Shown piece after piece: positions 2 to 26,038 of a stretch of DNA of 64,000 nucleotides (position 1 is the stretch's first letter; every line of letters starts with the position of its first letter). The stretch comes from Thermoplasmata archaeon. Lineage in GTDB: Archaea; Thermoplasmatota; Thermoplasmata; GCA-020350865. The translations under genes and the position numbers were made by a program. The DNA is taken from the NCBI GenBank assembly GCA_020348445.1, contig CP070751.1, positions 4,569,709-4,633,708 on the forward strand, written 5' to 3'. The notes under the pieces are model-generated. The model searched no databases and had not been told where the DNA came from. It was given only the letters and a program-made list of their open reading frames with translations.

Positions 2-964
2 ATGAGGAACCCTACACTTGATATAATTTACTCCATATTGGTTCTTGGCAATGTTGTAGTATTCTTCAAATCCCTTGCCATAGGTTCGCATATCCATGTA
101 GAAGATTGTGCAGTCTGTTCCTTTTGTATGTTCCTTAGCAATGATGGCCTCCTTAGTGGCATAGGTACAGCACACAGCAGAGCAGTATCCCTTGTCAACC
201 TGCTCGTCCCTGGAACCTACGCATTGTATCCAGGCGATCTTCATGGGATGTTTACCGTCAGAAGGACGAAGAACATGACCTGCGTACGGTCCAGATGCAG
301 AAAGAATTCTCTCGAATTGTATGCTTGTTACCACATTTGGGAATCTTCCGTATCCGTATTCGGATTTCACAGTGGGATCAAATGTTTCAAAACCTGGTGA
401 GAGGACTATAGAGCCGACATTTAAATTCACAGTCTCGTCCTCTTGAGCATAGTTTACTGCATTTGCCTTGCAGTACTGCTCGCACAGTCCGCAGCCTATA
501 CACTTTGTTCTGTCTATCCTGTATACCAGAGGTACAGCCTGGGGGAAGGGGACAAATGTCGCATTTCTTACTGAAACTCCCCTTTCGAACTCACTTATTG
601 CCTCGATGGGGCAGTACTGGGAGCACAACCCGCATCCTGTACATTTCTCCTCATCAATATATCTCGGATGTTTTACAACTGAGACTGTAAAATCGCCTGC
701 TTCGCCCTCCACCTTCTCAATGTCACTTACCGTTAAGATTTCGATGTTGTGATGCCTTCCAGTTCCCACGAGTGTGGGTGCAATGGTGCACATGGCACAG
801 TCATTTGTTGGGAAGGTCTTGTCCAATGAGGCCATGACACCTCCAATGCTGCTTCTCTTTTCCACGAGATAAACTTTAAATCCTGATTCTGCCAAATCGA
901 GGGCCGTTTGCATACCGGTGATACCTGCACCCAGGACCATAACCGCGCCAACTTTTTTTTCCAA
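2..964 (-). CDS. hdrA: Heterodisulfide reductase subunit A-like flavoprotein, 5' part only (runs off left edge)
   Basis: Absent from the ORF track; translated manually. TTG at 964 directly follows the mvhD TGA. Reads LEKKVGAVMVLGAGITGMQTALDLAESG...DKTFPTNDCAMC...CTGCGLCSQYCP...CIGCGLCEQYC...YGYGRFPNVVTSIQFERILSASGP...QCVGSRD...CSAVCC, all HdrA motifs; open to position 2. Confidence 0.92.
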   Translation of the reverse strand, partial: MEKKVGAVMVLGAGITGMQTALDLAESGFKVYLVEKRSSIGGVMASLDKTFPTNDCAMCTIAPTLVGTGRHHNIEILTVSDIEKVEGEAGDFTVSVVKHPRYIDEEKCTGCGLCSQYCPIEAISEFERGVSVRNATFVPFPQAVPLVYRIDRTKCIGCGLCEQYCKANAVNYAQEDETVNLNVGSIVLSPGFETFDPTVKSEYGYGRFPNVVTSIQFERILSASGPYAGHVLRPSDGKHPMKIAWIQCVGSRDEQVDKGYCSAVCCTYATKEAIIAKEHTKGTDCTIFYMDMRTYGKGFEEYYNIAKNQYGVNYIKCRVPH

Positions 965-1777
965 TCACACACCCCCTGCCTTTATGTATGTTGGCGACAG
1001 CTCTTTATGGCCGAATGGTAAGATGATCTGTTTTTTCCACAACCTTGCAACATGTTTAAAAATAGTCTCAGTGGGAATCCCTGTATCACCTGCCATCTCC
1101 TCAACTGTTTTTGGCTCTGACTCCACCCTCAATATGATGTTGCTTCTTATGTATTCTTCCTCGATTATCTCATCCTCGATTTTTTCCATCTCTTCCTGTG
1201 ATAGTTTCTCACCGTAAGCATTTCCAAGCTCCATTATCTTCTTTTCTCTGCCGAAAAGTGATCTCAACCTGAACTGCTGGGAGGCATGTATTGCAGCATC
1301 AAGCTGCCTGATAATTATCTTAGCTTTCTCATCCTTTTTGCGAATGGGATTGGGACCCAGTTTCTTTATCTTTGATGTAAATTCTGTGACAACCTCCTGA
1401 AAGCGTGCACCTTCTGAAGCCGAGATCCATTCAAGCTGCAGTCTTTCATTCTCCAAATCCACAAAATCAATTATTTTCTTGAGCATCCTGTACTTTCTTT
1501 TAGCCTCATAGTTACCTGAAATATAATGGCAATCTCCTGGATGGCACCCCATTATCAGAACTCCGTCCACCCCTGATTTCAAGGCTGAAAGAGGGAACTT
1601 GGGATCCAAACTTCCGCTGCACATCACCCTAATCACTCTAAGTGTGGTGGGCATTTGCATGCGGGACACACCTGCCAAATCAGCTCCAGCATAACTGCAC
1701 CAGTTGCAAAGAAAACCCACGATCTTTGGTTTGAATCCGCTGGTATTTTCATCTGTCTTCAGCCCTTCACCCTCCAT
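965..1777 (-). CDS. mvhD: MvhD/FlpD [2Fe-2S] subunit with ~125-aa C-terminal extension
   Basis: KIVGFLCNWCSYAGAD, RVMCSGS, GCHPGDCHY, WISASEG motifs; the canonical domain ends near LGPNP and is followed by a helical, wHTH-like tail. Confidence 0.92.
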   Translation of the reverse strand: MEGEGLKTDENTSGFKPKIVGFLCNWCSYAGADLAGVSRMQMPTTLRVIRVMCSGSLDPKFPLSALKSGVDGVLIMGCHPGDCHYISGNYEAKRKYRMLKKIIDFVDLENERLQLEWISASEGARFQEVVTEFTSKIKKLGPNPIRKKDEKAKIIIRQLDAAIHASQQFRLRSLFGREKKIMELGNAYGEKLSQEEMEKIEDEIIEEEYIRSNIILRVESEPKTVEEMAGDTGIPTETIFKHVARLWKKQIILPFGHKELSPTYIKAGGV

Positions 1778-24938: not shown

Positions 24939-25063
24939 TTGTACATCACCGAACTGAAAGAAGGTAAGGGTAATTCGAATTTAAGGATTTTCTATCACCA
25001 AAGCAAATTATAAAATATTCAACACCATATCCTGCTCATCTTAGAAAAGTATGGTGAAGGAAA

Positions 25064-26038
25064 TTGGATAAAATTTCAAAAACAATAAATAAATTACGCT
25101 CCCAGGATCTAGATGACCTGGTAGAACAGGCTTGGGAAATCAGAAATAGAAATTTTCCACGGGTGCTTAATGTTTCAGTACCCAGTGCCAAGACTTATAT
25201 TACTGATCACTACCAGAATAAACAGAATATCTTTGTGAATATCAGCATCACAGGAAACATTTGCGAGTTAAATTGCGAGCATTGTAAAAGAAAACTTCTT
25301 CAATCCATGATCCCGGCAAAAACCCCTTTGGAACTTAAAGAGGTGGGAGAATCCTTGGTAGAAAAAGGATGCCATGGAGTTCTTGTTTCCGGGGGTGCAA
25401 TGTCCGATGGGATGGTTTCTCTTGACAATTACATTGATTCAATAAGATATCTAAAAGAAATCGGATTGCAGGTTATTGTTCATACAGGTCTTGTCAACCA
25501 GACTATTGCTTCCAAATTGAAAGAGGTGGGTGTCGATCAGGTTCTAATCGATATTATCGGTGATAAGGAAACAATAAAAGATGTATATCATCTTGATAAG
25601 ACTCCCGAGGATTTTGAAAAATCCCTGAGAATTTTGAAGGGCGTTGGTTTGGAGATAGCACCTCATATAGTAATAGGTCTTAATTACGGCAAGATCTCAG
25701 GGGAATACAATGCACTTCATCTAATATCTGAAGTGAGTCCAGAGGTGATAGTCCTTGTGGTAATATCACCCATGCATGGGACACCAATGCACGGTTTGAA
25801 AACACCTTCTCCAGATAATATCGCAAGAATTGCAGCCATTGCACGGATTATCAATCCAAATACCAAGGTTACATCGGGCTGTGCTAGACCTCCAGGACCC
25901 CAAAAGATAGAAACCGAAAAGCTACTTATCAAAGCTGGTGTCAACTCCATGGCTTACCCTACAGATGAGGCCGTTGATTATGCACACAACCTTGGATTAA
26001 AGACGATTTTCAAGGAAGAATGCTGCTCTTTATTGTGA
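25064..26038 (+). CDS. lipS2: Radical SAM sulfur insertase, LipS2 type
   Basis: ISITGNICELNCEHC, GVLVSGG, VHTGL, PHIVIGL, SGCARPPG, C-terminal CCSL. Confidence 0.78.
   Translation: MDKISKTINKLRSQDLDDLVEQAWEIRNRNFPRVLNVSVPSAKTYITDHYQNKQNIFVNISITGNICELNCEHCKRKLLQSMIPAKTPLELKEVGESLVEKGCHGVLVSGGAMSDGMVSLDNYIDSIRYLKEIGLQVIVHTGLVNQTIASKLKEVGVDQVLIDIIGDKETIKDVYHLDKTPEDFEKSLRILKGVGLEIAPHIVIGLNYGKISGEYNALHLISEVSPEVIVLVVISPMHGTPMHGLKTPSPDNIARIAAIARIINPNTKVTSGCARPPGPQKIETEKLLIKAGVNSMAYPTDEAVDYAHNLGLKTIFKEECCSLL

Follow-up and report, generated by a model that had tools for sequence, protein, structure and literature searches.

Hdr-type enzymes are abundant in anaerobes that are not methanogens, such as sediment archaea, Asgard archaea, Chloroflexota and sulfate reducers, and the thiol/disulfide substrate that they use there is a gap that blocks quantitative models of energy metabolism. 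The closest described case is the sulfur-oxidising sHdr-LbpA system, with its maturation by sLpl(AB), LipS1, LipS2 and LipT (Cao et al. 2018, PMC6067878; Tanabe et al. 2023, PMC10332631); sHdr systems are accompanied by the sulfur transferases TusA, DsrE and rhodanese (PMC11094781). In the Ehe cluster of Culexarchaeia, GcvH is encoded with HdrB and HdrA2B2C2 and the authors suggest that it carries a disulfide (Kohtz et al. 2022, PMC9723716), so that the idea of GcvH as a disulfide carrier for HdrB has already been proposed. Here, we examine a stretch of 64,000 nucleotides from a Thermoplasmata archaeon (assembly GCA_020348445.1, contig CP070751.1, positions 4,569,709 to 4,633,708 of the forward strand), called the window below and numbered from its first letter, in which an Hdr operon adjoins genes for lipoate assembly and for two GcvH-like carriers, H1 and H2. 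A preliminary description of the window had proposed that a lipoylated protein stands in for CoM-S-S-CoB or DsrC as the partner of an NAD(P)H-coupled Hdr in a non-methanogenic archaeon.

Genes were identified by open reading frame (ORF) listing together with Pfam and NCBIfam scans, and the neighbourhood was compared across 19 loci with an H1-type gene, two of them in this genome and the others drawn from metagenomes and from a set with a single genome for each species. Carriers and CCG-domain proteins are linked more often than by chance: a CCG protein is encoded within 10 kb in 13 of the 19 loci, versus roughly 8% expected from CCG gene density, and four of this genome's five GcvH-family genes have a CCG-domain gene no more than 10 kb away. 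To judge from its gene content, the locus may be a lipoyl-protein-linked Hdr island, in which the lipoyl/dihydrolipoyl couple of the carriers would be the dithiol/disulfide of the CCG enzymes, a reading to which we give about an even chance.

Relatives also have the linkage, and this genome has it twice; conservation of the neighbourhood was one of the checks that the preliminary description had called for. The constant core of the 19 loci is (H2)-Lpl2-H1-LipS2-LplA/DUF116-LipT-like: H1 and, beside it, Lpl2 are present in all of them and LipS2 in 17, and the LipT-like flavoprotein gene stands beside lplA-DUF116 in nine. An HdrD gene is found in nine loci, with a fragmented tenth in locus L037, a GlcD-like gene in eight, UbiA adjoining hdrD in eight, and the pair of cytochrome b and multihaem cytochrome in six. 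HdrC-HdrB-HdrL is present in five loci (the two of this genome, L012, L025 and L026), and the HdrB copy kept in the relatives is the one that we call HdrB_b. HdrCB-HdrL thus occurs only in this sublineage, and the conserved partner across Thermoplasmatota is HdrD with a non-canonical GlcD-like flavoprotein; the methanogen-type HdrCB-HdrA-MvhD operon is limited to those five loci.

The reciprocal test started from homologues of HdrB_b and looked for carriers nearby. The genome's three closest HdrCB paralogues, which form one subfamily, all adjoin H1 clusters. In L105 (HdrB 80% identical), the order is lipS2-lplA/DUF116-hdrC-hdrB-hdrL-split hdrA-mvhD-Fer4, with H2 at the end; in L108, from a closed 3.6-Mb Thermoplasmata chromosome (HdrB 57% identical), H2 is divergent and directly beside hdrC-hdrB, and there is no biosynthetic gene nearby. 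L106 ends at a contig edge directly upstream of hdrC. Within this genome, the island runs past both ends of the first 26 kb (positions 2-26038) that had been described. Upstream of the window, the Hdr operon goes on: it includes an HdrA in split form, another MvhD and a Fer4 protein whose C-terminal part weakly matches FrhB, and after these (L009) come a divergent paralogue of H2 (65% identical to it), a GlcD/HdrD pair, an OsmC-like gene and UbiA. A second, paralogous cluster on another contig (L011) reads GlcD-HdrD-UbiA-UbiA-Lpl2-H1-HdrC-HdrB-HdrL-OsmC.

The sequences of the carriers themselves support their being extra paralogues and not the glycine-cleavage H protein. In a tree of 95 sequences, including 52 GcvH from gcvT-H-P operons, H1 and H2 form separate clades (support by SH-aLRT, the Shimodaira-Hasegawa-like approximate likelihood ratio test, of 100 and 98, respectively, H1 on a long stem), and both lie outside the group of 52 GcvH. 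The turn that follows the lipoyl lysine differs accordingly, being K-A-x-S-[DE] in GcvH with a glycine-cleavage context, K-F-V-S-[RK] in H1 (K-F-V-S-K in the window) and K-W-T-G-K in H2. The lysine itself is present in all five GcvH-family proteins of the genome and is invariant in 17 H1 and 40 H2 sequences. The true start of H1 is probably at 14225, giving a protein of 143 amino acids (aa).

The genome also holds the components of ordinary glycine cleavage: gcvPA and gcvPB lie 240 kb from the window, in a second, canonical set LplA-LipS2-LipS1-gcvPB-gcvPA-gcvH at G000:4324529-4330523 (the prefix G000 marks coordinates in the genome record), and GcvT lies 520 kb away. A gcvH with its own gcvPA and gcvPB and its own LplA, LipS2 and LipS1 suggests that the island carriers are extra paralogues served by a second lipoate assembly line, apart from the glycine-cleavage one. 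The island enzymes are 27 to 39% identical to those of the canonical set, with the LipS2 pair at 27%, and the canonical LipS2 scores 353 bits on the NCBIfam LipS2 model. Among 14 genomes, 12 have the H1-type LipS2 and six have both types together.

The island's assembly genes have features of their own. The LplA-LplB-DUF116 protein scores 54 bits on NCBIfam LplB (cut-off 65) and has an RKISG lysine motif and ten C-terminal cysteines; no mention of DUF116 was found in the body of PMC10332631, a paper on lipoate pathways. The same fusion adjoins a LipT-like gene in another archaeal lineage (L115:2688-4268). Lpl2 has a KKISG motif, and its matches in the Protein Data Bank (PDB) are lipoate-protein ligases. 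Its frame is open for about 47 codons further upstream (14306-15417) with no ATG, GTG or TTG, and this open stretch encodes the N-terminal part found in its orthologues of 318 to 337 aa; either an error in the sequence or the use of an uncommon start codon may explain this start-less extension.

The turn of H2 links it to carriers beyond this group. A Sulfolobales carrier (L064), encoded beside LipS2-LipS1-LplA and sHdr-type hdrC/A/C/B, has the turn K-W-V-G-K, and a tree that joins it to H2 had a likelihood above that of the free search (p of the approximately unbiased test 0.75); with one reference, and a group named after the motif had been seen, this grouping is a lead, not a placement. When an H2 profile was run against 1.8 billion representatives, K-W-x-G proteins led the list, and in both usable contexts from other lineages an HdrD-like gene is the neighbour or next neighbour of the carrier gene, a third context (P0365) being, at 513 bp, too short for use. 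We hold it as a tentative idea, rather more probably wrong than right, that lipoate on K-W-x-G paralogues of GcvH is the general disulfide of CCG enzymes outside methanogens, and that sHdr-LbpA is an aerobic, sulfur-oxidising offshoot of this older anaerobic system. One of the two usable contexts, a metagenomic locus (L114:465-5926), is a sulfur-relay version of the link between carrier and HdrD, with the order multihaem cytochrome, HdrD-like, DsrE, DsrE, DsrH, a GcvH-like protein with the turn K-W-V-G-R, TusA, DsrE and a CCG protein. In a Hodarchaeota metagenome-assembled genome (MAG), L046:3556-10390, a GcvH gene is divergent from hdrC-hdrB-hdrD-like-hdrA-mvhD; this GcvH groups with canonical GcvH and is 51% identical to the genome's own, so that the Hdr link is not confined to K-W-x-G carriers.

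Our comparison with LbpA involved that one Sulfolobales carrier, assigned by its sHdr-type gene context. The conserved cysteine pair of bacterial LbpA is found in neither H1 nor H2, both of which are acidic, and the Sulfolobales reference likewise does not have it; since the literature describes some archaeal LbpAs that do without these cysteines, the missing pair is by itself no bar to kinship. A PDB sequence search with H1 returned GcvH entries only and no LbpA structure.

The Hdr operon of the window is a minus-strand run, hdrC_b-hdrB_b-hdrC_a-hdrB_a-hdrL-mvhD-hdrA, with overlaps of 1 to 14 nt; the HdrA cut by the window edge is a 1001-aa protein at full length (G000:4567667-4570672). In the alignments, HdrB_a and HdrB_b each retain the full ten cysteines of their two CCG motifs. 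Both subunit pairs score under the NCBIfam equivalog cut-offs (283 and 239 bits versus 345 for HdrB, 125 and 117 versus 160 for HdrC). In HdrL, residues 922-1562 form an HdrA2-like module (NCBIfam HdrA2, 1175 bits, cut-off 1100), and residues of about 143-653 form a GltD/NfnB-like NAD(P)-binding Fe-S flavoprotein module (PRK12771, 570 bits, cut-off 516), the kind of module that the proposed NAD(P)H coupling calls for.

The more widespread partner has equally distinct features. HdrD keeps two CCG-type cysteine sets, its orthologues in nine loci are 57 to 64% identical, and its gene overlaps, and is translationally coupled to, that of the GlcD-fold protein, here called GlcD*. Aligned with mouse LDHD (8JDC), whose metal-binding and catalytic residues are numbered H398, H405 and E442, GlcD* has Met and Val in place of the two histidines and a gap in place of Glu-His; one of the aligned histidines matches the residue mutated in the deposited H405A PDB chains. 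This loss is common to all five island GlcD paralogues and to their orthologues, and a GlcD encoded elsewhere in the genome (G000:4921980) retains GHIGDGNLH and AEHG. From these substitutions, GlcD* does not look like a hydroxyacid dehydrogenase. Neither UbiA of the window falls in a known NCBIfam subfamily; a role as membrane anchor or as maker of a prenylated carrier was considered.

The genome record is a MAG of 5.16 Mb, 81.7% complete, in which stretches of 100 N connect 353 pieces, and the window falls within a 115-kb contig of it. Its taxonomic placement rests on homologues of its proteins, which come from Thermoplasmata and Thermoplasmatota MAGs, and its small-subunit rRNA is represented by one 3' fragment of 124 nt at a contig edge. 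Profile searches found no mcrA, mcrB, comA or dsrC in the MAG, an absence that is no proof in a record 82% complete, and mcrA is found in none of 13 genomes of relatives, which supports a non-methanogenic host, as had been supposed. No E2 was found in the genome. CCG-domain genes number roughly 20. At G000:3778247-3811190, there is a tandem array of at least seven gene pairs of HdrA (about 1000 aa) and MvhD, with more HdrA, HdrD and MvhD paralogues close by.

Pfam and NCBIfam place all the gene classes of the preliminary description where it had put them (Table 1), and its statement that the window has no glycine-cleavage P, T or L genes and no E2 genes holds. Both lipS genes are present; their labels had been swapped, as the best NCBIfam models are the reverse of those assigned. 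Six genes had been passed over: two paralogues of 219 and 230 aa, UbiB/ABC1, two UbiA and a plus-strand gene of 328 aa. Of the relatives, only the nearest (L012, L025) also have the 219/230-aa pair between lplA-DUF116 and hdrC, and two further paralogues are found elsewhere in the genome. For the 230-aa protein, the ESM Atlas gave a lead (score 0.91, TM 0.83) to neighbours that are tandem alpha+beta proteins of the AsnC-ligand-binding type from Thermoplasmatota and Bathyarchaeota. Beyond the genes of Table 1, a fusion protein for cytochrome c biogenesis of the CcsA/ResB type is encoded at 36917-39325, and another multihaem cytochrome, which has a CarboxypepD_reg domain, at 40097-42343 on the minus strand; they are followed by genes for an integrase of the rve family (43915-44841) and for a protein of 919 aa that contains YadA-head repeats (47652-50411).

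Table 1. Features of the Hdr and lipoate island. Positions are those of the window unless a locus (L) or the genome (G000) is named.
Feature	Position	Strand	Evidence and remarks
HdrA, C-terminal 321 residues	2-964	-	NCBIfam HdrA2 E 1e-127; window edge cuts gene
MvhD-like, 270 aa, FlpD domain	965-1777	-	Pfam FlpD E 1.7e-52; NCBIfam VhuD/HdrA2 C-terminal part
HdrL, 1565 aa, NfnB-HdrA fusion	1778-6475	-	Pfam Fer4_20, Pyr_redox_2 and NCBIfam
HdrB_a, two CCG domains	6472-7356	-	Pfam CCG; TIGR03288 283 bits, below cut-off 345
HdrC_a, two-[4Fe-4S] ferredoxin subunit	7356-7913	-	Pfam Fer4_8; TIGR03290 125 bits, below cut-off 160
HdrB_b	7900-8805	-	CCG; 79-82% identical in L012, L025, L026
HdrC_b	8802-9353	-	Fer4_8; 71-74% identical in L012, L025, L026
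Two paralogous genes, 219 and 230 aa	9601-10260, 10274-10966	-	No Pfam or NCBIfam match
LplA+LplB ligase fused to cysteine-rich DUF116	11151-12692	-	Pfam LplA-B_cat E 1.2e-47, Lip_prot_lig_C, DUF116
LipS2-type radical-SAM subunit, H1-cluster type	12782-13813	-	NCBIfam LipS2 230.5 bits, below cut-off 270
GcvH-like carrier H1	13794-14297	-	Pfam GCV_H E 4e-25; GcvH NCBIfam models 82 versus cut-off 117
Lpl2, second LplA/LipM-type catalytic domain, no LplB domain	14306-15157	-	Pfam LplA-B_cat E 2.9e-31
UbiB/ABC1 kinase	15418-17118	-	
UbiA prenyltransferase, first	17224-18306	-	
328-aa gene of unknown function	18238-19224	+	
UbiA prenyltransferase, second	19259-20230	-	
HdrD-like, two [4Fe-4S] and two CCG domains	20250-21479	-	Pfam CCG, Fer4_8
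GlcD-fold FAD protein (GlcD*)	21466-23037	-	Pfam FAD_binding_4, FAD-oxidase_C
GcvH-like carrier H2, 142 aa	23215-23643	-	Pfam GCV_H E 6.5e-39
Geranylgeranyl-reductase-family flavoprotein, LipT-like position	23880-24938	-	TIGR02032 208 bits, above cut-off 159
LipS1-type radical-SAM subunit	25064-26038	+	NCBIfam LipS1 231.1 bits, cut-off 230
Multihaem cytochrome c	26216-28855	+	
Cytochrome b	28876-29679	+	
Membrane protein	29689-30828	-	
GlcD*-HdrD-GlcD*	30955-34996	+	
OsmC/Ohr-like genes	L009:8164-8616; G000:1254109-1254603; L012:3683-4132; L013:15233-15658		

A scheme can be drawn from these elements. LplA-LplB-DUF116, Lpl2, LipS1, LipS2 and the LipT-like flavoprotein would build lipoyl groups on H1 and H2, with a possible division of labour between the two: H1, locked between Lpl2 and LipS2 with overlapping reading frames, is most likely an assembly or relay scaffold, and H2, the carrier found directly beside HdrCB (in L108) or beside GlcD-HdrD, would be the working carrier. 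In methanogen HdrB, CCG sites hold non-cubane Fe-S clusters, and the lipoyl couple of the carrier would be handled at CCG sites of two kinds of enzyme. One is the widespread module of HdrD and GlcD*, which would form a membrane-linked branch, given the genes for UbiA, cytochrome b and a multihaem cytochrome beside it. The other, predicted for this sublineage only, is a cytoplasmic HdrCB(-CB)-HdrL-MvhD-HdrA complex that would link the carrier to NAD(P)H via the NfnB-like module and is probably also coupled to ferredoxin by flavin-based bifurcation. That the lipoyl protein is a substrate of Hdr is what we infer from the gene content, and the carrier would take the role of CoM-S-S-CoB. Under the broader, tentative idea on K-W-x-G carriers given above, the GlcD-fold/HdrD pair and the bifurcating HdrABC would use the lipoyl protein to shuttle electrons between membrane cytochromes on one side and NAD(P)H or ferredoxin on the other.

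Several observations weigh against this proposal, and most of them feed the rival that survives best, namely that these genes are neighbours that share no chemistry. The cluster would then be an ordinary lipoylation operon with H1 as a relay scaffold for glycine cleavage, like GcvH in Bacillus subtilis; the Hdr and HdrD enzymes would use another disulfide, and their genes would be close by through nothing more than a tendency of redox genes in this lineage to cluster. The packed and overlapping trio Lpl2-H1-LipS2 contains the most conserved genes of the loci (19, 19 and 17 of 19), as an ordinary operon would have it. Six of the 14 genomes have the H1-type LipS2 alone, most of them with gcvP, so that this machinery must serve ordinary GcvH there too; gcvP is present in 11 of 13 relatives, and with glycine cleavage in most relatives the carriers, described at first as orphans, are so only in the sense of the window. 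Six of the 19 loci have no Hdr gene in the available DNA, three of these with full flanks (L014, L020, L039) and L021 short of its first 500 bases only, and L107 (HdrB 61% identical) is a large Hdr array with no lipoate gene at all. With more than 20 HdrA paralogues (HdrA-like ORFs) in the genome besides its CCG genes, some adjacency to carriers is expected, and the 19 loci are kin of one another, not independent samples, so that the linkage counts overstate independence.

Two natural fusions belong here as well. P0361 (L110:3234-7409; also L111) is a protein of 1391 aa with three GcvH-like domains, a GlcD-fold domain and HdrD, followed by a UbiA gene, and the lipoyl lysine is missing in all three GcvH-like domains. 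P0452 (L112:3347-4684) joins a response-regulator receiver, a GcvH-like domain with Gly at the position of the lipoyl lysine, and HdrC; its gene comes after one for a receiver-GcvH-like protein and before those for HdrB and an HdrA-like protein. Each type was seen in two assemblies. Lacking the lysine, they show an association of the GcvH fold with these enzymes and not one of lipoate, and we do not count them as support.

Against mere neighbourhood stand the complete second lipoate set already present beside gcvH-gcvPA-gcvPB; the position of H2, which adjoins hdrCB with no biosynthetic gene in L108 and ends an Hdr operon both upstream of the window and in L105; the HdrCB subfamily whose three members in this genome all adjoin H1 clusters; and a share of loci with a CCG protein that is far above expectation. 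We regard shared position without shared chemistry as unlikely on balance, yet as the explanation to be taken most seriously after a lipoyl couple serving the CCG enzymes.

A lipoyl-dependent peroxide defence is improbable. Ohr uses lipoylated proteins as reductant, and the carriers might accordingly feed thiol peroxidases of the OsmC/Ohr type, with the Hdr-type enzymes only regenerating dihydrolipoyl groups. OsmC/Ohr-like genes do lie at the cluster edges in six of the 19 loci, including both clusters of this genome, which speaks against the disulfide role proposed above; they are missing from the other 13, and their NCBIfam scores are under cut-off. A 15-kb Hdr operon of the bifurcating type, cytochromes and five GlcD* paralogues also exceed the needs of repair.

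Slightly less probable still is a reading in which H2, perhaps together with H1, simply serves glycine cleavage as a further H protein, and the Hdr-type enzymes would be an anaerobic substitute of the L protein in glycine cleavage or synthesis. H2 does pass the GcvH model PRK01202 (130 versus 117) and misses TIGR00527 by 0.15 bits, and two relatives have no GcvH besides H1 and H2, a point that also weighs against carriers devoted to Hdr. The only GcvT found in the genome is part of a 1257-aa protein in which serine hydroxymethyltransferase is joined to two GcvT domains; its gene is directly upstream of that for a 784-aa HdrA-MvhD fusion (G000:5088853-5095003; L109:854-7004, minus strand). Set against this, H2 branches outside the 52-GcvH clade and differs from it in the lysine turn, no gcvP or gcvT adjoins H2 or H1 in the loci examined, and three Pyr_redox_dim proteins of the genome are candidate L proteins. 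A true sHdr-LbpA sulfur-oxidation system, despite the two CB pairs, the LipS1/LipS2/LipT/ligase set and the K-W-x-G-K turn shared with the Sulfolobales carrier, is very improbable given a large methanogen-type HdrA with ferredoxin domains, MvhD, the NfnB fusion, an island free of TusA, DsrE and rhodanese, and acidic carriers that do not have the LbpA cysteine pair.

If a lipoyl couple does serve the CCG enzymes, lipoate would gain a third role besides acyl/aminomethyl transfer and sulfur oxidation, and the origin of sHdr-LbpA might be traced to anaerobic archaea. The locus would make an unusually clean test bed, with two lipoate systems, two signature carrier clades, intact CCG sites and a GlcD-fold partner apparently devoid of hydroxyacid chemistry.

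Compared with known systems, the island resembles sHdr-LbpA in that GcvH-family carriers distinct from GcvH adjoin HdrB/C-type CCG proteins, and in its dedicated ligase, LipS1, LipS2 and geranylgeranyl-reductase-like flavoprotein, all kept in relatives. This much of the likeness noted at the outset stands; the small sHdrA, the sulfur transferases and the cysteine pair do not carry over. Unlike the small sHdrA and the shdrC1B1AHC2B2 order, the HdrA proteins of the island have 1001 and 1565 aa, with Fer4 domains, and come with the NfnB module and MvhD; the genome's two tusA genes lie outside the island (G000:41781 and G000:1331813); the commonest partner is HdrD with a GlcD-fold flavoprotein; and the host looks anaerobic and has cytochromes. 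With methanogen HdrABC-MvhAGD and HdrA2B2C2, the island shares an HdrA2 module above cut-off, an HdrB with both CCG motifs intact, HdrC and MvhD. It differs from methanogen HdrABC in its HdrB and HdrC below the equivalog cut-offs, in the NAD(P)H module of NfnB type fused to HdrA, in having no adjacent Mvh hydrogenase genes, and in a host where no mcr or comA was found.

The HdrD branch recalls HdrDE of Methanosarcina and DsrMK-type modules, as an HdrD-like protein is encoded in loci with cytochrome b (6 of 19); in contrast to these, the island HdrD is translationally coupled to a GlcD-fold flavoprotein, UbiA genes follow it, and the cytochrome b belongs to the Ni_hydr_CYTB type and not to NarI/HdrE. 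The pairing of a GlcD-fold FAD protein with a GlcF/HdrD-like CCG Fe-S protein is that of GlcDEF, D-lactate dehydrogenases and LutABC, except that the His/His/Glu-His residues of GlcDEF and LDHD are replaced in GlcD*. In Bacillus subtilis, the lipoyl relay runs LipM-GcvH-LipL, and the island similarly sets a GcvH-family protein between LplA/LipM-type and sulfur-insertion enzymes, with LipS1/LipS2 in place of LipA and in a genome with no E2 targets found. Like the Culexarchaeia Ehe cluster, the island pairs a GcvH-type protein with Hdr in a non-methanogenic archaeon; the Ehe cluster is centred on a membrane [NiFe]-hydrogenase, and no dedicated lipoate set or second carrier clade is described there. 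To these precedents the present locus adds a genome that holds two lipoate systems, a pair of carrier clades, each with a diagnostic turn, a reciprocal test from HdrB, a degenerate GlcD partner and, as a caution, fusions devoid of the lipoyl lysine.

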